Counted from the first letter of the stretch, positions 6,696 to 57,389 are shown. The stretch: DNA of 64,000 nt from an uncultured Pseudomonadota bacterium (GCA_902801125.1 CADCGT010000006.1:578-64577); one strand, 5' to 3'. Numbers and translations: made by a program. The notes: generated from the sequence alone by a model not told the origin.

Positions 6696-7298
6696 ATGAT
6701 TTATGGTTATTGCCGCGTTTCAACCACGCATCAACACGAAGAAAACCAGCATTTTGTAATAGAAAAATTCGCACGAAAAAATAATTTGACGGTTGATATG
6801 TGGATAGAAGAAAAAATTTCAAGCGGAAAAAGATTAAAAGACCGCAAATTGGGCGCACTGTTAAACGAATTGAAATCTGGCGATATACTTATCACAACCG
6901 AAATATCCCGCCTTGGGCGCAGTTTGTTGGAAGTAATGGGAATTTTACAGATGTGCCTTGAACGCGATTGCCAGGTATGGACACTTAAAGAAAATTTTAG
7001 GCTTGGGACCGATATTCAATCAAAAGTTTTGGCGTTCGCGTTCGGACTGTCGGCGGAATTGTCGCGGTCACTGTTGCGGGAACGGGTGCGCGAAAGCCTT
7101 GCGCGGTTAAAGGCGGGTGGTAAAAAACTTGGCCGGCCAATCGGCGCACAATCGCGCGTATTAAAACTTACCAGGAATCAAAAGCGCGTCGCCCTGTTGA
7201 TGGCCCAAGGCGTAACAAAAACCGAAATCGCACGAATTATGCGTGTGCACAAGGTCACACTTTATAAATACCTAAGGAGCATGGGCCTTATGGAATAA
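6696..7298 (+). CDS. serine recombinase, DNA invertase/resolvase family (Hin/Gin/Pin-like)
   Basis: MIYGYCRVSTTHQ carries the catalytic Ser in the YxRVST motif. About 200 aa with a C-terminal HTH (GVTKTEIARIMRVHKVTLYKYL). Start chosen at the internal ATG 6696 of ORF 6498..7298. Confidence 0.85.
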   Translation: MIYGYCRVSTTHQHEENQHFVIEKFARKNNLTVDMWIEEKISSGKRLKDRKLGALLNELKSGDILITTEISRLGRSLLEVMGILQMCLERDCQVWTLKENFRLGTDIQSKVLAFAFGLSAELSRSLLRERVRESLARLKAGGKKLGRPIGAQSRVLKLTRNQKRVALLMAQGVTKTEIARIMRVHKVTLYKYLRSMGLME

Positions 7299-34028: not shown

Positions 34029-37000
34029 TTATTGTTCCGTTTTATTCCCAGTTATTGGGTCACGTTCCCCATTTATCAAACCGTCGTCATATGCCGTGTA
34101 TTGTTGACCATTGTACATAAGGTGCAATTTTGACAAAGTGTGGTCAGTGGGACTAAGCCCGACATAATGCACATCATTTTCAGCCAACTTTAAATTGATT
34201 GCCGGGGTCGTTGGCTTGACGGTTTTAGTATACACTACATAATCTCCAAAATGCAATTTGCGACCACAATCAGATTCTTCATCCGCACCATGCCCATATC
34301 CAACAGTTGTTAATCCGGGGGGGCATTCTGTGCGCGTATTATCCCCGGCAGCAGAATAAAAATCCACACCGACCATGGTGCATGACGTATTATTCGCGCT
34401 GTAATACCCCGCATCGCATGACCACGGACAATTGTTTGCCGCTGCAGAACCACTATATGAACTGTTTGCCGGTTTAGTGTTGGTACATGCCGTGCAAGCC
34501 GTTGCACCGGTATCCGCGGTATAGGTCCCAATCTCGCACATAGTGCACGCCATATTACCCGATGATGCTTTATATGTCCCTGCGGCACATGGTTCGCATG
34601 AAACCTTGCCATTCCAAGTTGTCCCATTTGTTGAACCTTCGTAGTTTGTAATATACTGCGTTGTTCCAGCTGGGCACATTGTCACCAAATTTGTTCCAAC
34701 AAACGTATTGCCCCACATATTTGTGTTTTTCGTGCTATCGTTCGCAATCAATCCCGCAAATGTGGTCGGCGGTATATAACCTGCCATATTCGTACAACCA
34801 TTAAATGTGCCATAGAACAAATTCTCTGCAGTTGTGGTTATACCACTAAACAATTCGGCCGGCATCGCGGTTAACCCTGTACATCCGTTAAATGTATCCT
34901 TGAACCAGCCAGTTTTATCGGTTCCACTGGCCGCGCCACTAATAACATCCGCGAACAAATCCGACGGTATTGTGGTCAATGATGTGCATCCCTCAAATGT
35001 GTATTCAAACATATTGGGCACCATTCCAGATGTCGTGATATCATCAAATAAATCGGATGGTATTGATGCCAATGACGAACAATTTTTAAATGTGTTGGCG
35101 AACATATTGGGTATGCCATTAATATTCATTCCGCTAAACAGTTCCGCTGGGACAGAGGCTAGCGACGTACAGTCACTAAATGTATCCCTAAACACACCGC
35201 CAGTACTGGTACCAGAAAGCCTGCTCCAACTTGATGAACTGGCGATAATATCATCAAACAATCCACTGGGAATTGTGGTCAAAGATGCGCAACCGGTGAA
35301 TGTTCCCTCAAACATATTGTCAACCGCGCCACTGGCGCTCATATCATCAAACAACCCACCGGGAATCACGGTCAGCGAAGCACAGTTAGCAAATGTATAT
35401 TCAAACATACCAATACCCAAAGAATCGACATCATCAAATAAATCAGATGGAATCGTGGTCAGTCCCGAACCGTCAAATGTATGATAAAACATGTGCCCCT
35501 GGGTCCTGGTTATGCCATCAAACAATGTACTGGGTATCGTGGTCAGGTTTGTCGCCCCCTTGAATGTTTCACGGAAAAACGGCAAAGCACTATTATTTGG
35601 GGTTGGGAACAACGCGGCCAAAGACCCTGAAACAGATGCGATTTTATCCTGGGTTCCGCCGGTTTGCCCGTAAAAACTTATTGCGGTATGCGACCAATTT
35701 CCATCATATCCCGTGGCAACACCACCAAATTTAATTGTATATGAACCGGTTGTTGCATATGTGTGGGAATACGTGTTTCCGGTTGAACTGGCACGCGTAA
35801 TTGTATCAACGGTGCCATCACCCCAATCTACATAGAACGTTCCAGTTGGTTCCCACATAAAAAATTTAAATTCACTTGTGTTGTTTGTGGTTGTGATGGC
35901 AAATTTTGCGGTCTCGCAAATACCGTCGGCCAAAAATTCATTTGCGGTGCATGCACGACATGCGCCATTATCACTGCCATAGCCCGTGTCACATTGCCAT
36001 GGACAATTATCAATTATCGCAGAACCTGTATAATGGCTGTTTGCCGGCTTATTGGTGCACGCCGTTTGCGTGTTGTCGCCGTTACCGGAATAATATCCGG
36101 TTTCAACCGCGGTGCACGATGTATTGTCCGCACTGTAATACCCCTCATCGCACAGCCATACGCACGCGTCATCAATAACGGACCATTTACTGTTTGCCGG
36201 TGGATCATCGGGGCATGCAACATAACATGATACACGACTACTCCATTCGGTTTCATAGCCAGTGTTATAATCATCCAATCCCGTCGGACAGGATGTGGCA
36301 ACCTTTGTGCCATAAAACGTTTCGGTCCACATATCAGTATCTGTCGGTGAATTGTTCGCAATCAGCCCCGCAAAAGTTGTTGGCGGAATATAACCAGACA
36401 AATTCGTTGCATTCTTGAATGTCGCCCGAAACAGACCAGATGCCGCGTTGGCAATGTTGCTGAACAAATCATCTGGAATTGCTGTTAATGATTTACAATT
36501 ACTAAATGTCTCGCGGAACATTTCGGTTGCACCGGTTGTCACGCCCGAAAACAATCCCGTCGGAATCTTATTTAGCGCATTACACCCATAAAATGTCTGA
36601 TAAAACATGTTCGATGCGTTTACGTTGCCGGTTATCCCAGTGAACAAGCCCGCCGGTATACTGGTCAGGTTGGTTGCCCCTTTGAATGTCTGATAAAAAC
36701 GCGGGTATTGCCCATTTGATGCACTCTTTTGCGGGAATATTGCAGATAACGAACCGGTCATTGATGCAATTTTACTGGCCGTAGGTGCAAAACTTATTGC
36801 GGGTGTAGTGGCAGTGGTATTATACGATGTTGTTGTCCCGGCAAACTTTACCGTGTGCACACCTGCGGTCGGCCAAGCACATGAATAGGTCTGTTTCGTA
36901 GTATTGGTGCGTGTGATGACCGTTCCAGCCGCATTATTGTCACCACTATACGTGGTCTGGGTCAACACACCATCGGTGCCACAATCAACATAGAACGTGC

Positions 37001-38075
37001 CAATCGCAGATATGTCAAACCGCAGTTCCGTCGTATCGGATGTTGTAGTTACGGTAAATTTATCCTGAAATTCGCATACACCATTTTCCATAACATAATT
37101 ATCATCGCACTCATACGGGCACGAATTAGATGTGGCGGACGCGGTATAGTGTGTGTGTATCGGAGCATTTGTACACATAATGCGGGTACTGGTAGAACCG
37201 TAGTTAGTAAGCGAAGCATTGGAATAGTATCCCACGCCGACATCCGAACACCCACCCGCCACGGGACCTGCTTCAAATGCGCCATTACCGGTCTTGAACG
37301 CATTTTGCTTCATATCATACACCCCTATCACATTATCGCTGTTGCGGCGGGCGGCGACAAAATTATGGACCAACACACCATCCTCGTACACTTGCAAGTC
37401 ATAAATACGCCCCTTGAACGAACGTGCCGCTTGTTTGTTACCAGCATCAAAAAGGTGAATTGTGGTGGCTGACTCTGCTATTTTACCTCCCTTAAAAGTG
37501 TCGGATTTGCTTCGCCCATCGTCGTATATTAATTCACGTGTGCCATTTGTTAACACATACTCAATTTGATGGACAGTTCCCGCCGTCATCGGATATACCG
37601 GACCTTCTAATCGGCTGCCTGATGACTGGGTCCACAATTTGAAATATGCGTTCCAACCAACTGAATACCCACCAGTTGCCTGGTTTCCGATAAAATTGAT
37701 GTTTGAACTGTTGGGTAAATCACTTGACACGCCGACACGCAATACACCACGAATTGTGGTCGCACTCGCGTTATGCGAGAACTCGGTATCAATCAGTTTG
37801 CCGTATGGGTTTTCAATGTACTCCAATCGGGTATATTCGGTTGAACCAAGGGCTGCGGGAGTCGCAATGAATGTTCCGGCGGCACAACTTCTTTTACAAT
37901 CAACCGCACTGGTTTTGATGTCGTTTGGATTGGCCGTGTATCCAGAGGGGCATTCAATACAGCTATCGCTGGAGGCATCATAATAGGTCGCGCCGGTACA
38001 CGTCGTATCAGCGTAAGCTATACCGATAAACAGAGTTATTATTGGTATCAAAAGAGCCCTAAAAATACCTTTCAT
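34029..38075 (-). CDS. giant secreted surface protein (1348 aa): GCC2/GCC3-like Cys-rich modules plus DUF285/BspA-like repeat arrays
   Basis: Signal peptide MKGIFRALLIPIITLFIGIAYA. C..C..GTY and CDxGYYS..NTSC modules. More than 10 copies of an about 25-aa repeat MF..TF..C.SLT.IP..LF. Confidence 0.75.
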   Translation of the reverse strand: MKGIFRALLIPIITLFIGIAYADTTCTGATYYDASSDSCIECPSGYTANPNDIKTSAVDCKRSCAAGTFIATPAALGSTEYTRLEYIENPYGKLIDTEFSHNASATTIRGVLRVGVSSDLPNSSNINFIGNQATGGYSVGWNAYFKLWTQSSGSRLEGPVYPMTAGTVHQIEYVLTNGTRELIYDDGRSKSDTFKGGKIAESATTIHLFDAGNKQAARSFKGRIYDLQVYEDGVLVHNFVAARRNSDNVIGVYDMKQNAFKTGNGAFEAGPVAGGCSDVGVGYYSNASLTNYGSTSTRIMCTNAPIHTHYTASATSNSCPYECDDNYVMENGVCEFQDKFTVTTTSDTTELRFDISAIGTFYVDCGTDGVLTQTTYSGDNNAAGTVITRTNTTKQTYSCAWPTAGVHTVKFAGTTTSYNTTATTPAISFAPTASKIASMTGSLSAIFPQKSASNGQYPRFYQTFKGATNLTSIPAGLFTGITGNVNASNMFYQTFYGCNALNKIPTGLFSGVTTGATEMFRETFSNCKSLTAIPDDLFSNIANAASGLFRATFKNATNLSGYIPPTTFAGLIANNSPTDTDMWTETFYGTKVATSCPTGLDDYNTGYETEWSSRVSCYVACPDDPPANSKWSVIDDACVWLCDEGYYSADNTSCTAVETGYYSGNGDNTQTACTNKPANSHYTGSAIIDNCPWQCDTGYGSDNGACRACTANEFLADGICETAKFAITTTNNTSEFKFFMWEPTGTFYVDWGDGTVDTITRASSTGNTYSHTYATTGSYTIKFGGVATGYDGNWSHTAISFYGQTGGTQDKIASVSGSLAALFPTPNNSALPFFRETFKGATNLTTIPSTLFDGITRTQGHMFYHTFDGSGLTTIPSDLFDDVDSLGIGMFEYTFANCASLTVIPGGLFDDMSASGAVDNMFEGTFTGCASLTTIPSGLFDDIIASSSSWSRLSGTSTGGVFRDTFSDCTSLASVPAELFSGMNINGIPNMFANTFKNCSSLASIPSDLFDDITTSGMVPNMFEYTFEGCTSLTTIPSDLFADVISGAASGTDKTGWFKDTFNGCTGLTAMPAELFSGITTTAENLFYGTFNGCTNMAGYIPPTTFAGLIANDSTKNTNMWGNTFVGTNLVTMCPAGTTQYITNYEGSTNGTTWNGKVSCEPCAAGTYKASSGNMACTMCEIGTYTADTGATACTACTNTKPANSSYSGSAAANNCPWSCDAGYYSANNTSCTMVGVDFYSAAGDNTRTECPPGLTTVGYGHGADEESDCGRKLHFGDYVVYTKTVKPTTPAINLKLAENDVHYVGLSPTDHTLSKLHLMYNGQQYTAYDDGLINGERDPITGNKTEQ

Positions 38076-38242
38076 ATTTTCTTATAATTTCTTGTCACCC
38101 GCAGAATTTCAGCAAAAATTTCCCTTTCCCCGAAAAAAACGGATGATAATTTTACCTCCCTTGTTATGTAGAAGCTTACTAAAATCGCAAAGATTGACGC
38201 AAGCATTTTTTTTGAAATTCGCATAAAAAAAATTATAAAAAA

Positions 38243-38327
38243 CTACTTCGGTGGCACATGCCACCTCGCCTCGCAACTCGCCCCTTTGCCGACAAAATCA
38301 AAAACCGCCCTTTCGGGTGTTTTTTTA
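38243..38327. repeat. left direct repeat of the tRNA-Gly-associated islet (copy of the about 110-bp unit without the tRNA-end segment)
   Basis: TACTTCGGTGGCACATGCCACCTCGCCTCGCAACTCGCCCCTTTGCCGACAAAATCAAAAACCGCCCTTTCGGG is about 97 percent identical to the units at 40941..41155. Confidence 0.75.
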
Positions 38328-40814
38328 TTGTGGTTTTCGCCCATCCCGGCCAATACTTTTGACCAATTTTTTTTGCTCTAATTTACGTGTTATTTTACTG
38401 AATAAATTTTCTTGTAATTTCTTTTTGGCGACAATAAAAGGATTTTGTTTTATTATTTTAATTCTGTGCCTTGGCAAATCAGCTATGGCGACATCTATAC
38501 CATGTATTTTGCATTTTTGTCCTTTGATTTGTTTATAAATTGGCCAACTTAATTTTATACTTTTTACATTGGTAAAATCGGCATTATGCAGTTTCAATTC
38601 GGCAACATCGCTGAAATCTAAATCACCCGATAGTTTGGCCCAGGACAAATTTACATATCCATCCTTTAAATTGAAAATTGGGTTCAAATTTGCATTTCTT
38701 AAATCGGCCCCCGTTAAAGACACAAAACATGGATAATCCGCATCATCAATATCACCCATAAACATCGCATTGGGATTAAACTTTATACCGGTAACACTGG
38801 TCAAATCGGCATAACTTAGGCGAACCACCCCTATATCACTAAAATCCCAATCACCCGCCAACACGGCCCCTTTCAGGTTCACAAACTCTTTGTCCGGGAA
38901 TATTATTTCTGTGACCTGGGTTAAATCAGCGTGCATCAAATTAAATTTTTTGACATTGCTGAAATCCCACTTACCCCCCAATTTGGCATATTCTAAATCT
39001 ATATTTTCTGAATCCGGAAATTTGATACTAGTGACCCGGGTTAAATCGGCACCTGATAATCTTACCTGTTCGCAATTGCTAAAATCCCAATTGCCCGCCA
39101 ACACGACACCATATAAATCCACAAATCCAGTATTTGGAAACTTTATGCTGTTAACCCTCGTTAAATCCGCATTTTGTAAATCTATATTATCCATATCCAT
39201 ATTGCTGAAATCCAAATCTCCGGATAATTTCGCATAAGACAAATCTATCATATTAGATCGTCGGTTAAATTTTATATCTGTGACATCGGTTAAATCGGCA
39301 CCACACAGAGTCAATAATTTTACATTGCTGAAATCTAAACCGCCCGATAATCTTGTTCTCGTAAGGTTTACTATATAACCATATGGATTAAATTTTATAC
39401 TGGATACACCGGTTAGATCTACCCCCCTTATATTTAAACTATCTACATCACTAAAATCCGGATTGCCCAACAGTTTAATTTTCGTTTCATCAAGTGTTAT
39501 TGCATCGGCATTCGGATTAAATTTTATATCTGTGACATCGGTTAAGTCGGCCTCACTCAAATCCAATGTTTTAACATTGCTGAAATCTAAACTGCCCGAT
39601 AACTTTATGGTTTTGTTTAATATGATTGACGCAGCGTTTGGATTAAACTTTATACCTGTGACATTGCACAAATCCAATTTTTTCAAAATAAGGTGTTTGA
39701 CACCGCTGAAATCCAATTCACCCGATAATTTTACACCCCGCATAGAATCAAATTGCACCTTGCGCCATGTCGACATATTTACAAATGTTATCGCCCCATC
39801 GGTAACATCCATAAATCGTTCACCATCCAATAATATGGTTTTTGTTGTCCCTTTGGCGCCGATTACCTTTATCTTTTTACCATGGATATATTTATTCAAA
39901 GCATAACACATTTCGGAGTCAGCACCCGCAACAGATATTATTTGACTGTTATCATGCGCCATATTTAAAATAAAACCATCGTAAAACAATAACTGGCTGC
40001 CATCGTCTTTAAGTTTTGTAATCGTACTGCCACTGAAATAATAATCGGGCCCAAAATAGATATTGTTTGTTTCATAATTGAATCGCACCAATTGGTCATT
40101 TACCATACGGAAATTGTCCGGCAATTGACTGTTGGTCGTATTAAATTCAACATGAAAATATTTTTTAAGCGCATCGCTTAATCCCGGAATAATATTGTCC
40201 GGGTTGTTACCAAATGTTGCATCTGGATTGGCAATCGTGTGATTATAGCGATTCTTTATTGATATAAATCCACCACTTCTGGCAATTTGAATCGATATAA
40301 CCGATGTTCCATATTCATCCTGGCGTTCAGGTTTGTCTGATGGTTGAATATGCCATTTTTTTGGTGACAATTTATCATCGCCCAACACTTCTTTTTTGAT
40401 GGCGTGTATCATATAATAGTTTATGTGCCGCTCTGGGTCACCAAAAGTGCACAATCTCTCATTTGGACGATAATACTTTTCAATAGAATTTTTTTGTTGT
40501 TCGGTTTTAACAACGAACGCCTCATAGCCGGCATCGCTTAATAATTGTAGCGGATTTTTGGTTGTTCGGGACACAGATCTTTCTTTGGACAAATAAATTT
40601 CTTGGATGACCTTGCGTAATTGTCTTGCTTCATCTGGATTTCGACCCGCAAATTCTAATATGTGCAAAATATTTGGAATGGCACATAAATCCCCATTGTG
40701 ATCTTCGTCCCCACGCATAATTTTGGCAAAAGTTTCCCCATGTTGCTTTTTTAATTTTTTGAAAATTTCTTCTGTATTTATATCGACCATTTGTGTTTTC
40801 CCTGTTGCGAACAT
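38325..40814 (-). CDS. pentapeptide-repeat protein (829 aa), AT-rich, no signal peptide; effector-like
   Basis: N-terminal 350-aa unique domain, then about a dozen about 40-aa units (...LSGxLDFSNVKxLxLxxADLTxVTxIKFNPNA...) built from A(D/N)LxX pentapeptides. Basic C-terminal tail. Confidence 0.7.
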   Translation of the reverse strand: MFATGKTQMVDINTEEIFKKLKKQHGETFAKIMRGDEDHNGDLCAIPNILHILEFAGRNPDEARQLRKVIQEIYLSKERSVSRTTKNPLQLLSDAGYEAFVVKTEQQKNSIEKYYRPNERLCTFGDPERHINYYMIHAIKKEVLGDDKLSPKKWHIQPSDKPERQDEYGTSVISIQIARSGGFISIKNRYNHTIANPDATFGNNPDNIIPGLSDALKKYFHVEFNTTNSQLPDNFRMVNDQLVRFNYETNNIYFGPDYYFSGSTITKLKDDGSQLLFYDGFILNMAHDNSQIISVAGADSEMCYALNKYIHGKKIKVIGAKGTTKTILLDGERFMDVTDGAITFVNMSTWRKVQFDSMRGVKLSGELDFSGVKHLILKKLDLCNVTGIKFNPNAASIILNKTIKLSGSLDFSNVKTLDLSEADLTDVTDIKFNPNADAITLDETKIKLLGNPDFSDVDSLNIRGVDLTGVSSIKFNPYGYIVNLTRTRLSGGLDFSNVKLLTLCGADLTDVTDIKFNRRSNMIDLSYAKLSGDLDFSNMDMDNIDLQNADLTRVNSIKFPNTGFVDLYGVVLAGNWDFSNCEQVRLSGADLTRVTSIKFPDSENIDLEYAKLGGKWDFSNVKKFNLMHADLTQVTEIIFPDKEFVNLKGAVLAGDWDFSDIGVVRLSYADLTSVTGIKFNPNAMFMGDIDDADYPCFVSLTGADLRNANLNPIFNLKDGYVNLSWAKLSGDLDFSDVAELKLHNADFTNVKSIKLSWPIYKQIKGQKCKIHGIDVAIADLPRHRIKIIKQNPFIVAKKKLQENLFSKITRKLEQKKLVKSIGRDGRKPQ

Positions 40815-40849
40815 TATATCACAAAAAACATAAAAAGTATTAATAAAAT

Positions 40850-41155
40850 TCGCCTCGCAACCCTGCGGATTCTCGCCCCTTTGCCGACAAAATTAAAAAC
40901 CGCCCTAACGGACGGTTTTAAAATTTTGGTGCGAGCAAAGTACTTCGGTGGCATATGCCACCTCGCCTCGCAACCCTGCGGGTTCTCGCCCCTTTGCCGA
41001 CAAAATCAAAAACCGCCCTTTCGGACGGTTTTAAAATTTTGGTGCGAGCAAAGTACTTCGGTGGCATATGCCACCTCGCCTCGCAACTCGCCCCTTTGCC
41101 GACAAAATCAAAAACCGCCCTTTCGGACGGTTTTAAAATTTTGGTGCGAGCAAAG
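40850..41155. repeat. tandem array (about 2.8 copies) of an about 110-bp unit adjoining the tRNA-Gly 3' end; each unit carries GGTGGCATATGCCACC (16-bp palindrome) and a copy of the tRNA 3' terminus
   Basis: Units at 40850-40940, 40941-41050 and 41051-41155 are near-identical; one has a 10-bp indel CCTGCGGGTT. Each ends TTTTGGTGCGAGCAAAG, the reverse complement of tRNA-Gly 3' CTTTGCTCGCACCA. Confidence 0.85.
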
Positions 41156-41218
41156 GGGCTCGAACCCTCGACCTCAACCTTGGCAAGGTTGCGCTCTAGC
41201 CAACTGAGCTACGCTCGC
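41142..41218 (-). tRNA. tRNA-Gly (anticodon GCC), CCA encoded
   Basis: Reverse complement is GCGAGCGTAGCTCAGTTGGCTAGAGCGCAACCTTGCCAAGGTTGAGGTCGAGGGTTCGAGCCCCTTTGCTCGCACCA. Confidence 0.85.
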
Positions 41219-41284
41219 GATTGCCCGCATATTCTTACACATCAAAATCCATTTTGCAAGCAAAAAATATTTTTCCGACAAACA

Positions 41285-42682
41285 TTAAATTCGACCCATA
41301 TTTTGACGCATCAAATCGGGCGTAATAGACCAATCCAAATCAATTTCTGGTTCCCAACCACCCGGTGTTTTATACCACATTTTTCCATTTTTTACCAAAT
41401 CGGTCAGCATTTTACGCAACAACGAATATTCCGGATTTTGTTTTAGTTTTTCTATTGCCTTGGCACATTCTTGATTTAAACGCGCGGAATTACGACGCAA
41501 TGTTATGTCCAAGTATGGATTATATGCCCGAATGCCGCCACGTTCCAACATATCGGCAAAATCCAAATCTTTTTGTAATTGCGATTCCAGCGTACCACTT
41601 ACGTCATTTGGATATTTGTTATTAAATTCCCTTGCCAAATAAACGTTGTTTCGTATCATTTTAATATATTTATCCAAATCGTCCACATATGATTGATACA
41701 CATCAACCATGGAATCGCCCATAATAAATTGCGGGGAAATGTATTTATGAACACACGCATCATAAATTTCACCAATATCACCCGTATTACACAAATGTAT
41801 TAAATCAAGGTAACGCAATCCGATTTGCTCGAATTCGCGTTCCAGTGTGCCGGAATGTCCTTTGTTATCACCAGTTGCACTGATTCCATGGGCCACCGCA
41901 TTATTCGCAACCGTATTAGAAAATTCATTTTCGTGTGCATAAACATATTGATAACCCATTTTATCCATCGCCATACGGACAACGGCCTCACGCAGGAAAT
42001 TTGTTAAAATAACCATCCGGGATTCTTCAAGCAATCCGCGAATAAACATGCGTTTGTCTTGCGCGGCATTATATACACGCCTTACGTATTCGTCGCGCAA
42101 CAAATTTTCCATTTCGTATTCGGTCAATTCGGCATTTGCATATTTTTCATATTCTTGACGAGATGATAATGGAACGAGTGATAAAATTGTTTCTATTTCT
42201 TGGTCTGTGAATTTATCTGTTTTATATGTAGATACATGTTCACCAATATTAAATAATCGACCATTATCGGGCCTTATAATATGTGTTGTTTCCGGCAGTA
42301 TCAAACCAGTATCGGGGTTTGGAATAAAAAATGTATCTTCGGATGCAACCATTCGCGGGTTTCCGTTTTTGGCAACAATATCGTTATACGGTGCCAAAAC
42401 CACAATTGGGGACGCATCCCAATTTCCACCCATGTGACTACTTACAATTTGATTCAATGTGAAATGGACCGTGGCACGCGCGTATTTATATCCTGTTGCC
42501 ATACCCGTGGTTGGGATATACACATTACCGTTTCGGTCGCGACGCGGCATATAATTTGTTGCATGCACACACAACCATTTATCCATATTGCCCGCCACAG
42601 AAAAATCCGAAGAATTAACAAAATATCCACGTCCATCTTGCATCAATTCTAATGCATCTTTGAAATCATTGATTTTTGCCAT
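41285..42682 (-). CDS. hypothetical protein (about 465 aa)
   Basis: Start at MAKINDFKD; the 5' extension of the ORF would overlap the upstream gene. No motif I can assign. Confidence 0.45.
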   Translation of the reverse strand: MAKINDFKDALELMQDGRGYFVNSSDFSVAGNMDKWLCVHATNYMPRRDRNGNVYIPTTGMATGYKYARATVHFTLNQIVSSHMGGNWDASPIVVLAPYNDIVAKNGNPRMVASEDTFFIPNPDTGLILPETTHIIRPDNGRLFNIGEHVSTYKTDKFTDQEIETILSLVPLSSRQEYEKYANAELTEYEMENLLRDEYVRRVYNAAQDKRMFIRGLLEESRMVILTNFLREAVVRMAMDKMGYQYVYAHENEFSNTVANNAVAHGISATGDNKGHSGTLEREFEQIGLRYLDLIHLCNTGDIGEIYDACVHKYISPQFIMGDSMVDVYQSYVDDLDKYIKMIRNNVYLAREFNNKYPNDVSGTLESQLQKDLDFADMLERGGIRAYNPYLDITLRRNSARLNQECAKAIEKLKQNPEYSLLRKMLTDLVKNGKMWYKTPGGWEPEIDLDWSITPDLMRQNMGRI

Positions 42683-42789
42683 TTTAGTTCCCTTTCTCTG
42701 CACCGAAATTTTATCATAAATCGGGCTATAATTCAAGCATGTATCATTTAAAAACCGCCCGGATGGGCGGTTCGTTTTATCGTTGTTGG

Positions 42790-43773
42790 TTAAAACCATT
42801 TCCATGGCTGCAACATTTTTAACATACTTATCGCCGTGCGTTTGTCCGCAAATGCGTGTCCACAACGCGGGCATACGATAAACGGTGCAATTATTGCCTT
42901 GTATTTCTTGTGAATCATTGACCAGATATACAATCCCAAAGCCCAGGCCGCAATTACCAACCCCCATGCGACATAGCCAAAATATTTGTTCACGGTGTTT
43001 GTTATAATCTGGACTACACCAAGGTTCGATTTTTCCAAATCGTTATAGATTTTCACCGCCACCGGCCACGAAGATGGACGCCACGGATATACGTGTTTGA
43101 TTCCATAGTTCGTCAACAGTGTCGTGCCCAGTCCGCCGGTGTTTTTGTCGATTTGTTTTTTGACGGCTTCATCAATCATTTTATCGACTTCGATTTGGGT
43201 CAATTTAACCAATTCTTTTTCGACAGTGTCCAATTTTTCATTTACCATTTTGGCGACATTGTCCACTTTGTCAACGGCGGCGTTTGCTTTACCGATTGCA
43301 GAATCCGCCTGGGCCACCGCTTTATCGACGCCATCGGTTTTTACACCGAATTTGTTTACCAACCCGGTCAGGCCCTTGACCCCGGATGTTGCCTGGGACG
43401 CCCGCGCGGTTTGTTCTTTGGCTTTGGCGGTGGTATCGGTCACTTTATCAACCTGTTTTTCAACGATTTTTACTTTCTCTATCGCGATGCCAACCGGTTT
43501 TTCCAAATTGATTGCATTTTTGATTCCGCCCAGTAATTTTTCATACTGTTCCACAATATTGCGTTGCAAATCAAAGAACATTGACACAACGATTGATTTC
43601 TTGATTGGGCCCGCATAATGTGATTTTACATAAAGCGGAAACCACGCAACGAACGCCAACCATATCACAGATACTATGATAAACACGCGTTTCGCATGCG
43701 TCACCACAGATGTTTTTTTCGCAACGGTTTTTGCGCCACCGCGGTCAATTACTTCGATTTCTTTTTTTGCCAT
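42790..43773 (-). CDS. hypothetical two-TM protein with a long Lys/Ala/Val coiled-coil region and a C-terminal CPRCG zinc-ribbon
   Basis: TM helix FIIVSVIWLAFVAWF, an apolipoprotein-like helical repeat region (VDKVTDTTAKAKEQT...), a second TM helix, then CPRCGHAF. Confidence 0.45.
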   Translation of the reverse strand: MAKKEIEVIDRGGAKTVAKKTSVVTHAKRVFIIVSVIWLAFVAWFPLYVKSHYAGPIKKSIVVSMFFDLQRNIVEQYEKLLGGIKNAINLEKPVGIAIEKVKIVEKQVDKVTDTTAKAKEQTARASQATSGVKGLTGLVNKFGVKTDGVDKAVAQADSAIGKANAAVDKVDNVAKMVNEKLDTVEKELVKLTQIEVDKMIDEAVKKQIDKNTGGLGTTLLTNYGIKHVYPWRPSSWPVAVKIYNDLEKSNLGVVQIITNTVNKYFGYVAWGLVIAAWALGLYIWSMIHKKYKAIIAPFIVCPRCGHAFADKRTAISMLKMLQPWKWF

Positions 43774-56979: not shown

Positions 56980-57056
56980 GCACCCATAGCTCAACTGGAT
57001 AAAGCGTCTGACTACGGATCAGAAGACTGAGGGTTCGAATCCTTCTGGGTGCGCCA
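56980..57056 (+). tRNA. tRNA-Arg (anticodon ACG), CCA encoded
   Basis: GCACCCATAGCTCAACTGGATAAAGCGTCTGACTACGGATCAGAAGACTGAGGGTTCGAATCCTTCTGGGTGCGCCA. Anticodon loop CTACGGA. Confidence 0.85.
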
Positions 57057-57062
57057 GGATAA

Positions 57063-57098
57063 AAATAAAACACGGTTCAACACCGTGTTTTATTTTTA
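57063..57098 (+). terminator. terminator hairpin after tRNA-Arg
   Basis: AAAACACGGTTCAACACCGTGTTTTATTTTT. Confidence 0.7.
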
Positions 57099-57103
57099 TC
57101 GTC

Positions 57104-57327
57104 GCCCCCGGGCATGCGAACCCGACAAGTTGCGAAGCAACGAAGGGTTCGACAATGAGTAAGCGAAAACAAGCAATAGCGCAGTTTGAGTGCCAACGAA
57201 TGCCCCGAAGGCACTTATGCCGAGGGAAAACAAGTAGATTTGATAAACGCAGTGCAATCAAATCGTCACGGTTTGCGCGCAGCCGGCACATATTTATGTG
57301 CCGCGCGAGCGAATCCTTCTGGGGGCA
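57104..57327 (+). other. noncoding segment ending in a 14-nt duplicate of the tRNA-Arg T-arm/acceptor (CGAATCCTTCTGGG); candidate att remnant or small structured RNA
   Basis: GCCCCCG at 57104 can pair with CTGGGGGC at 57319. Internal hairpins CGAACCC.../...GGGTTCG and GTTGCGAAGCAAC. No ORF. Confidence 0.4.
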
Positions 57328-57389
57328 TATTTAACCGCAACTTGCTTTTGTAAATATAATAATGTATAATTATGCATGACGTTAGCCAT

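Follow-up and report, generated by a model that had tools for sequence, protein, structure and literature searches.

The locus considered here lies in a window of 64,000 nucleotides (nt) of DNA from an uncultured Pseudomonadota bacterium (GCA_902801125.1 CADCGT010000006.1:578-64577; the window below always means this whole stretch). Between positions 38243 and 41218 a tRNA-Gly(GCC) gene on the minus strand is followed by tandem repeats that carry copies of the tRNA 3' end, by a single long gene and by one further copy of the repeat. This raises the question whether the gene was delivered by an integrase that left its attachment (att) sites behind as scars, as was proposed in the initial annotation of the sequence, or whether it entered an array of repeats that was already there. 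Comparison with related loci makes it very probable that the repeats are a conserved module linked to the tRNA and that the gene was inserted into the pre-existing array. For the statement as a whole, namely that the array is a tRNA-linked tandem repeat of the E. coli tyrT/rtT kind, that it is a recombination hot spot and that the gene was not delivered through att sites, the chances appear to be even.

The tRNA-Gly(GCC) gene was called by both ARAGORN and Rfam, and Tandem Repeats Finder reported behind it an array at 40850-41155 with a period of 113 (2.8 copies, 92% matches, score 503), which bears out the tRNA followed by about 2.8 tandem copies as originally described. The array begins within the tRNA 3' end, overlapping it at 41142-41155. 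These are the last 14 nt of the gene, CTTTGCTCGCACCA (the 14-mer), and they are reiterated in the units. The reverse complement, TGGTGCGAGCAAAG, occurs exactly three times in the 64 kb, at 41142 (the tRNA's own copy), 41040 and 40927, whereas 0.02 occurrences are expected by chance and none of 100 shuffled sequences reached three. Read along the minus strand, the 14-mer is followed by AAATTTT, a strong intrinsic terminator, GTCGG-CAAAGGGGCGAG, an optional hairpin AACCC-GCA-GGGTT (P2), TT-GCGAGGCGAG, a hairpin formed by a palindrome (P3), CGAAGTA and once more CTTTGCTCGCACCA. The module is made up of a terminator, a core of 60-75 nt and the 14-mer. It was originally stated that every unit ends with the tRNA 3' terminus; this holds for the two full units (102 and 113 nt) but not for the third, which is truncated, nor for the distal copy. 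The latter (38240-38324) is 94% identical to 41050-41134 and is indeed situated where a further copy had been indicated, near 38243-38327; it begins inside the terminator stem and ends with ...GAAGTA, without the 14-mer. In the same way, a perfect 16-bp palindrome had been ascribed to each unit. The perfect form, GGTGGCATATGCCACC, is present in two units only (at 41060 and 40947), the third unit being cut off ahead of it, and in the distal copy it has one mismatch (at 38250). Neither ARAGORN nor the Rfam tRNA model called a tRNA other than the true one, and no cloverleaf was found in the units; an Rfam scan of 37500-42000 (E<=10) returned the tRNA and chance matches only (e.g. RNAI, driven by the terminators). 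A small open reading frame (ORF) within the unit was rejected, since its sole ATG lies in the variable P3 loop and the frame is not conserved. Two further assemblies of the same strain are available, one of which lacks 11 nt at 40974-40984 (L001; a P2 polymorphism in unit 2) and the other one entire full unit, unit 2 (L043). The arrays of the three assemblies differ while flanks of 17-22 kb are identical, so the number of units in the window is not certain.

Related loci were collected along two routes, by matches to the neighbouring proteins and by scanning metagenome contigs for GAAGTA joined to the 14-mer, which gave 36 loci. The module was seen only behind identical tRNA-Gly genes, on more than 40 contigs of related uncultured Alphaproteobacteria, and wherever the tRNA gene is present at full length it shows no differences among the loci. 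With an intact tRNA-Gly on the contig, GAAGTA and the 14-mer follow about 90-200 nt past the tRNA 3' end, the sole exception being L025, where an island of 1.84 kb intervenes. The relatives that carry cores and were found through proteins (the window's own strain, L003 and L051-L054, including L052) are unbiased by the DNA pattern. The related proteins are labelled 'MAG: Alphaproteobacteria bacterium' in the source records, and from the record names a rumen- or gut-type origin of the metagenome sample behind the window is inferred. The possibility of a dispersed repeat, which would have spoken against a link with tRNA ends, was rejected, because neither motif nor covariance-model searches turned up the repeat outside tRNA-Gly arrays; R1, a covariance model of the core, matched only such arrays in about 400 kb (window plus loci, searches of 240 kb, 379 kb and 27 kb).

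A comparison with empty sites had been suggested at the outset, and such sites were found. In L051, L053 and L054, whose neighbour protein up327 is 98% identical, the tRNA is followed by unit 1, by a last core without the 14-mer, by the same junction, GTTTTTTATAATTTTTTTTATGCG, and by a 395-aa ortholog of the window's 1348-aa protein, with no gene inserted. These three loci are true empty sites for the inserted gene (821 aa, see below). Further empty sites are L009/L010/L013/L015, L014 and L038, in which an IMPDH-like gene or a large surface-protein gene stands directly past the units. The distal core of the window is orthologous to the last core of L051/L053/L054; beyond it follows GTTTTTTATAATTTTTTTTATGCG..., the leader of the next gene (34029-38075), and the junction sequence 38076..38243 is also found after the last core in relatives without the inserted gene. 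Measured against the empty-site array, about 60 nt have been exchanged in the window for a promoter-bearing gene, which is a strain-specific insertion; the lost stretch extends from the P3 hairpin of a unit up to the 5' terminator arm of the unit that follows. That units are found on both sides of the gene follows from its location within an array that was already there. Its proximal border is inside the truncated core, after GCGAGGCGA, with an AT-rich stretch next to it, and its distal border is inside the terminator stem, where the stop codon abuts a hybrid terminator, AACACCCGAAAGGGCGGTTTTT; neither border is the 14-mer. Because the right junction, with this hybrid, looks like a crossover of two similar terminators, it points to acquisition by recombination with the DNA of a relative and not by an integrase.

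The same layout of a unit, a cargo gene and a last core without the 14-mer is present in L037, where it has arisen independently, and truncated cores stand ahead of different cargo genes in L003 and L030, with break points that differ by 5-10 nt. In L003, found via the upstream protein (72% neighbour identity), the identical tRNA precedes a full and a truncated unit, with a differing P3, GGCAACTTTAGTTGCC, and then comes another gene. Cargo genes have entered the array repeatedly and at differing positions. A further type of cargo at the same insertion point was seen in L017 and L022, where a small GIY-YIG-like ORF (MFYVYILQS...KFYIGY) lies directly past the 14-mer of unit 1; in L017 it is followed by another core.

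According to the explanation given initially, the gene is the cargo of a decayed or in-trans-mobilized integrative islet (like a cis-mobilizable element, CIME), and the unit copies are attL, attR and reiterated att sites left by repeated integrase insertion at the tRNA 3' end. The existence of empty sites in close relatives and the lower G+C content of the gene agree with this, as do genuine islands at this tRNA-Gly that are bounded by 15-19-nt copies of the tRNA 3' end. One of these, of 1.84 kb, lies straight after the tRNA (L025) and one, of 2.9 kb, past unit 1 (L052); both have the remnant of an integrase N-terminus at the start and repeated GTGTCAAGCAAA-like arm-type motifs at each end, and close with ...TTCC-CTTTGCTCGCACCA. 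A third is a 0.9-kb cassette common to L034 and L039 that ends as the other two islands do. The 14-mers of the units, like that of the tRNA itself, are borders of these islands. At ssrA of Dehalococcoides, too, islands in tandem with reiterated repeats of the 3' end are on record, and some of them have no integrase (PMC3146451). As the islands of the relatives show, integrase-mediated insertion exists in the lineage and unit 14-mers can serve as attachment sites, so that this part of the proposal stands for relatives; the gene in the window does not seem to be explained by it. Its left border falls within a core and its right border within a terminator stem, the 14-mer is missing from the distal copy, units with the same GAAGTA/CTTTGC junction are present in genomes that never had the gene, and units of about 100 bp occur without any cargo. 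As first noted, no integrase remains: neither a tyrosine integrase nor Phage_integrase is among the called genes of the window, which include only a small resolvase near 6.7-7.3 kb. Moreover, the nearest homologs of the protein are not beside tRNAs or units. The reading of the repeats as attL and attR of this gene is consequently not supported, and delivery as islet cargo is regarded as quite unlikely. Two other candidates were set aside. An integron-like attC reading is not favoured, as IntI is missing, the cassettes are promoter-bearing and variously oriented, and R'/R'' boxes were not seen. A phage origin was rejected since the 20-mer of GAAGTA and 14-mer had 0 occurrences in IMG/VR viral contigs and blastn against phage genomes gave only terminator-like pieces of 25-30 nt.

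If the array preceded the gene, it has to be asked what maintains it. In pairwise comparisons among 28 loci, the mean identity of the core blocks A and B was 98% each, versus 58% in the 60 nt that precede the tRNA, 52% in spacer plus terminator and 36% in P3. Conservation is 98-100% in three unpaired sequence blocks of the unit, whereas compensatory changes accompany the drift of P3 and the terminator. Among 31 distinct cores, five of the six base pairs of P3 show changes on both sides (47 cells), a covariation score reached by none of 500 shuffles; when the partner strand was slid as a control, pairing fell from 97.6% to 29-49%. P2 shows one compensatory change. The core is thus a series of helices with compensatory changes between conserved unpaired blocks. 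It had been suggested that the palindrome is a binding site for a protein; this did not survive the comparison, as its sequence differs in nearly every lineage and only the pairing is kept. The covariance model R1 is colinear with tRNA-Gly over the full length of R1, from the D-loop to CCA, with GAGG(U)CGAGG in common and with P2 opposite the anticodon arm and P3 opposite the T arm. From this alignment, which is weak but full length, the core is read as a diverged, 5'-truncated copy of tRNA-Gly in which the 3' strand of the acceptor has been kept.

These figures bear on the view that the units are scars without function, i.e. a displaced or duplicated 3' part of tRNA-Gly with its flank, amplified by unequal crossing-over and kept similar through concerted evolution only, in which the gene landed by chance. 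The copy number (1 to 3) varies even within the strain, and the copies of one locus are more alike in P3 and terminator than copies across loci; both observations fit ongoing unequal crossing-over or gene conversion and would be expected of scars. So would the absence of the core from some relatives and the degenerate or truncated state of many last cores without the 14-mer (L052, L003, L038, L008, L018, L023). However, concerted evolution homogenizes copies within a genome and not between genomes, and between genomes the flanks are only 52-58% identical while the three blocks reach 98-100% and the helices between them change with compensation. In addition, the cores that bear the 14-mer are all intact, whereas those without it decay. 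Scars without function are for these reasons considered improbable.

The remaining choice is between an action of the core as RNA and an action as DNA. That it acts at the RNA level is suggested by the conserved unpaired blocks between covarying helices, by the tRNA-like end and by co-transcription, which is possible in three lineages because no terminator stands between the tRNA and the core in L019, L033 and L036. On this basis RNA-level action is a tentative proposal with slightly less than an even chance. Much the same may be said of the combined proposal that the core acts as RNA, that the hot spot is secondary and that the right junction is a terminator crossover, which we put forward as possible but somewhat short of probable.

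A number of observations weigh against this proposal. The 36 metagenome loci were chosen by GAAGTA and the 14-mer, so the conservation of that stretch among them is there by construction. The acceptor-like closing helix (GCGAG with CUCGC, optionally GG with CC of CCA) is invariant; with both strands invariant and the 3' strand fixed by the search pattern, it is uninformative for covariation. Wobble counts in the helices, 4 G.U versus 3 A.C, do not indicate a strand, folding energies are only modestly below those of shuffled sequences (z -1.1 to -3.1), and the similarity between R1 and tRNA-Gly outside the 14-mer is weak (13.7 bits in total). At most loci each core is separated from the tRNA by a strong intrinsic terminator and no promoter was seen ahead of the cores, which together argue against an abundant core RNA. 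Finally, three relatives found through proteins, with 94% (L057), 88% (L064) and 81% (L065) neighbour identity, have the tRNA and the terminator but no core. The core is therefore dispensable and the module accessory, and patchy presence combined with conserved ends would also be expected of a selfish DNA element that depends on a recombinase.

It is accordingly conceivable that the unit acts as DNA, either as a miniature non-autonomous integrative or recombination module or as a secondary attB provided with an arm for recombinase binding. In that case proteins would bind to the conserved blocks (three GCGAG motifs, CGAAGTA and the 14-mer) and the hairpins would be extruded or single-stranded DNA, as in integron attC sites and repetitive extragenic palindromic (REP) elements. 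Strong conservation of the blocks in spite of patchiness among close relatives, wobble pairs without strand bias and terminators ahead of the cores are all in line with this, and so are the observations that the whole core can be folded as one long imperfect hairpin, that unit 14-mers form the left island borders in L052 and L034/L039 and that genes for small resolvases are found repeatedly in the vicinity of the locus (L011, L025 and L030). Yet no recombinase is consistently adjacent, the integrase-type islands at this site have ends to which the unit shows no similarity, the pattern has 0 matches in viral contigs and no meaningful match in phages, and a unit of 100 bp could not circularize alone. 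Besides, the truncation points before cargo genes vary by 5-10 nt, which implies that they are not site-specific. A DNA-level role is on balance held to be unlikely.

In the reading given above, the unit consists of the 3' flank of the tRNA (spacer and intrinsic terminator) and a 60-75-nt diverged, 5'-truncated copy of tRNA-Gly, with P2 as an optional anticodon-arm-like hairpin and the variable P3 in place of the T arm. The 3' strand of the tRNA with CCA (CTTTGCTCGCACCA) could pair with the conserved upstream GCGAG motifs to form an acceptor-stem-like helix. Under the RNA-level proposal, the core RNA would arise by read-through or co-transcription with tRNA-Gly and its CCA end would be trimmed by the tRNA maturation enzymes, giving an accessory trailer RNA. 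The reiterated tRNA ends and the local homology would secondarily make the array a hot spot for the gain of genes and gene cassettes. Taken to its full extent, this would define an undescribed family of structured RNA derived from tRNA-Gly, D-arm-less and tRNA-like or minihelix-like, with a genuine acceptor end and CCA, arising from the tRNA-Gly(GCC) trailer in a large uncultured lineage of Alphaproteobacteria from gut and rumen and having an accessory function of its own, e.g. mimicking the acceptor end of tRNA-Gly or serving as its decoy towards processing enzymes, the synthetase or tRNA-targeting toxins, with the reiterated ends as landing pads; in this full form the proposal is doubtful. 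What had looked like an island with att scars is in any case a conserved, tRNA-derived structured module that has no Rfam family and is tied to one tRNA gene in many uncultured bacteria of gut and rumen. As an RNA, the core would represent a new class of trailer RNAs that mimic a tRNA; as a DNA module, it would show how reiterated tRNA ends organize a hot spot for gene gain.

The inserted gene is, as was stated initially, the only long ORF between the repeat copies (38325-40814, minus strand), and it is AT-rich (36% G+C in the gene region versus about 44%). The length of 829 aa given for its product should be reduced, because the first ATG overlaps the -10 box TGATATAAT; the start codon is probably the second ATG, at 40790, which yields 821 aa and is also the start called in the L043 assembly. 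No signal-like segment is present at the N-terminus and 16 of the last 60 residues are K or R, in agreement with the absence of a signal peptide and the basic tail reported before. The C-terminal half consists of beta-solenoid repeats with A(D/N)LxD-like motifs and a period of 40-42 aa. The label 'pentapeptide repeat' has some backing in weak Pfam and NCBIfam matches: PF00805 reaches 26.7 bits for the whole protein versus a cut-off of 20.2, but no single stretch passes, the HetL model of NCBIfam scores 35.8 versus 260, and similarity to PipB is negligible (17 bits versus 274). The top Foldseek matches are ectodomains with leucine-rich repeats (LRRs), with weak scores, and AlbG is found at rank 25 (E=0.14). 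Going by the predicted model, the repeats resemble LRR solenoids more closely than classical pentapeptide proteins; the label is best regarded as weak and marginal. The reading as an effector is likewise a weak one; the traits seen (no signal peptide, basic tail) are indirect, and no secretion system was noted in the window.

The AlphaFold model has a predicted local distance difference test (pLDDT) score of 88 over the full length and of 92.6 for residues 1-305, and for this N-terminal domain no structural or sequence relative was detected. More than 2,500 proteins begin with the domain formed by these N-terminal 305 aa (39876-40790, minus strand) and make up a family in which the C-terminal repeats are swappable; the C-terminal halves in this family are either repeats of the type in the inserted protein (pentapeptide-like) or BspA-type LRRs (LRR_5), and members are sometimes adjacent paralogs (L049). 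With a confident N-terminal model that has no structural relative and with interchangeable repeat domains, it is a candidate family for interaction with hosts or phages. That the gene family is always linked to tRNAs was rejected: the closest homologs lie among housekeeping genes, between rpsU/DUF378 and a PBP gene, between mreB and xseB/mutS, and next to rpsP, and no tRNAs or units were found near them.

Table 1. Features of the tRNA-Gly(GCC) locus, with positions counted from the first letter of the window
Feature	Position	Strand	Basis
Putative promoter region of the tRNA, TTGCAA ... TAAGAAT	41219..41267	-	Reading by eye
tRNA-Gly(GCC), CCA encoded	41142..41218	-	ARAGORN; Rfam tRNA 65.9 bits
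Unit 1, 102 nt: AAATTTT, terminator 41111-41134, core without P2, P3 palindrome 41060-41075, CGAAGTA, 14-mer 41040-41053	41040..41141	-	Covariance model, 74 bits
Unit 2, 113 nt: as unit 1 with P2; terminator 41009-41032, P3 40947-40962, 14-mer 40927-40940	40927..41039	-	Covariance model, 99.2 bits
Unit 3, truncated, 77 nt: terminator 40896-40919, core to ...TTGCGAGGCGA, without P3 and 14-mer	40850..40926	-	Sequence
AT-rich promoter and leader of the inserted gene: extended -10 TGATATAAT 40813-40821, Shine-Dalgarno-like AGGGAAAA 40796-40803	40791..40849	-	Inspection of the sequence
Inserted gene, 821 aa (829 aa from ATG 40814): N-terminal domain of ~305 aa, 40-42-aa solenoid repeats, basic helical tail	38325..40790	-	Start as called in L043
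Distal 'last' unit: 3' terminator half fused to gene end, complete core without P2, P3 38250-38265 (1 mismatch), ends GAAGTA	38244..38324	-	Covariance model, 36.9 bits
Conserved junction with promoter/leader of the next gene, GTTTTTTATAATTTTTTTTATGCGAATTTC...GCTTGCG...	38076..38243	-	Comparison of the window with L051 and L052

The neighbouring genes in the window are ordinary bacterial housekeeping genes. The putative promoter region of the tRNA is near-identical ahead of the tRNA in L051 and L052, and was not among the results of a consensus promoter scan. Upstream of it lies a gene for a 504-aa protein (41285-42799, minus strand), for which no family was found; it is absent in the closest relatives, L051-L057, where a 327-aa gene abuts the tRNA, and it is a second strain-variable insertion at the tRNA-Gly locus. 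On the other side, the 1348-aa surface-type protein (34029-38075, minus strand) has matches to Ephrin_rec_like and PARCEL repeats. Its 395-aa ortholog in L051 (10531-11718) has only the N- and C-terminal parts in common with it, the internal repeat region having undergone strong expansion or contraction. Loci also vary in how the tRNA-unit block is oriented with respect to the TGT/327-aa block (e.g. L003, L006, L008 and L016). Genes for small serine recombinases (resolvases; MIYGYCRVST...) are found near the tRNA-Gly/IMPDH region in L011, L025, L030 and L007, beside a conserved protein of 150-200 aa, and the resolvase gene of the window (about 6696-7298) is 34 kb from the array. QueA of L051, L053, L057 and L065 is 502-538 aa long and has DUF559 (Vsr-like endonuclease) between the two Queuosine_synth halves, QueA of the window being 341 aa; the DUF559 part looks like an invasive endonuclease or an intein-like insertion.

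A second tRNA-linked partial tRNA copy was observed in the trailer of tRNA-Arg(ACG) (region 56980-57330, plus strand). This tRNA is followed by a terminator and, about 250 nt downstream, by a partial copy of itself that comprises the T-loop and the 3' strand, GAGCGAATCCTTCTGGGGGC (57308-57327), ahead of which stands a perfect 8-bp hairpin, CGGCACAT-ATTT-ATGTGCCG. The same trailer contains (at 57168) a longer relative of a conserved non-coding element, AACAAGC-N3-GCGCAGTTCNAGC ... TTGCGCNNAG-hairpin-GAGCGAA, that is located past the last 14-mer in L013, L015, L021, L026 and L038.

With respect to known systems, the inserted protein is comparable to pentapeptide-repeat and LRR-type solenoid proteins in its beta-solenoid C-terminal half, its A(D/N)LxD-like motifs and its weak Pfam and NCBIfam matches, and differs from them in the 40-42-aa period and in an N-terminal domain without a known relative. 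For the core, a parallel is offered by 3'ETS-leuZ of E. coli, a non-tRNA RNA element in the trailer of a tRNA transcript (3' external transcribed spacer, 3'ETS) that is released by tRNA processing. The core would likewise be a non-tRNA element in a tRNA trailer, for which release by tRNA processing is proposed here; unlike the former, it is usually separated from its tRNA by terminators and is a tRNA-derived repeat instead of a unique spacer. Functional RNAs in such spacers have been reviewed (PMC8166272). The tandem islands at Dehalococcoides ssrA combine a reiterated gene 3' end with strain-variable cargo, and some of their segments are without an integrase (PMC3146451). In the reiteration of 3'-end copies downstream of a tRNA-like gene and in the strain-variable cargo they resemble the present locus, and the islands of L025, L052 and L034/L039 fit their type. 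The gene in the window, however, is not delimited by copies of the 3'-end repeat, the units of 100 nt are free of cargo and have one conserved structured core, and there is no integration module.

The closest parallel to the array itself is formed by the little-understood rtT repeats of E. coli. The tyrV array of E. coli K-12 was checked directly: it has 3.1 copies of 178 bp, starts inside tyrV, carries in each unit AATCCTTCCCCCACCACCA, the 3' end of tRNA-Tyr with CCA, and has the small RNA RttR annotated in its first unit. At tyrT, an RNA is produced from the repeat unit of the tRNA operon (PMC3318445; bioRxiv 10.1101/2024.07.17.603846). The tRNA-Gly array has no sequence or Rfam rtT similarity to these repeats, is linked to tRNA-Gly instead of tRNA-Tyr, has units of 102-113 nt with an intrinsic terminator and a core that resembles a truncated tRNA with covarying hairpins, extends over a broad uncultured lineage and contains inserted genes; the two should be considered analogous and not homologous. 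What they have in common is that the array starts in the 3' end of a tRNA, that each full unit carries the 3'-terminal nucleotides of that tRNA with CCA, that there are about three copies and that the array is patchy among strains.

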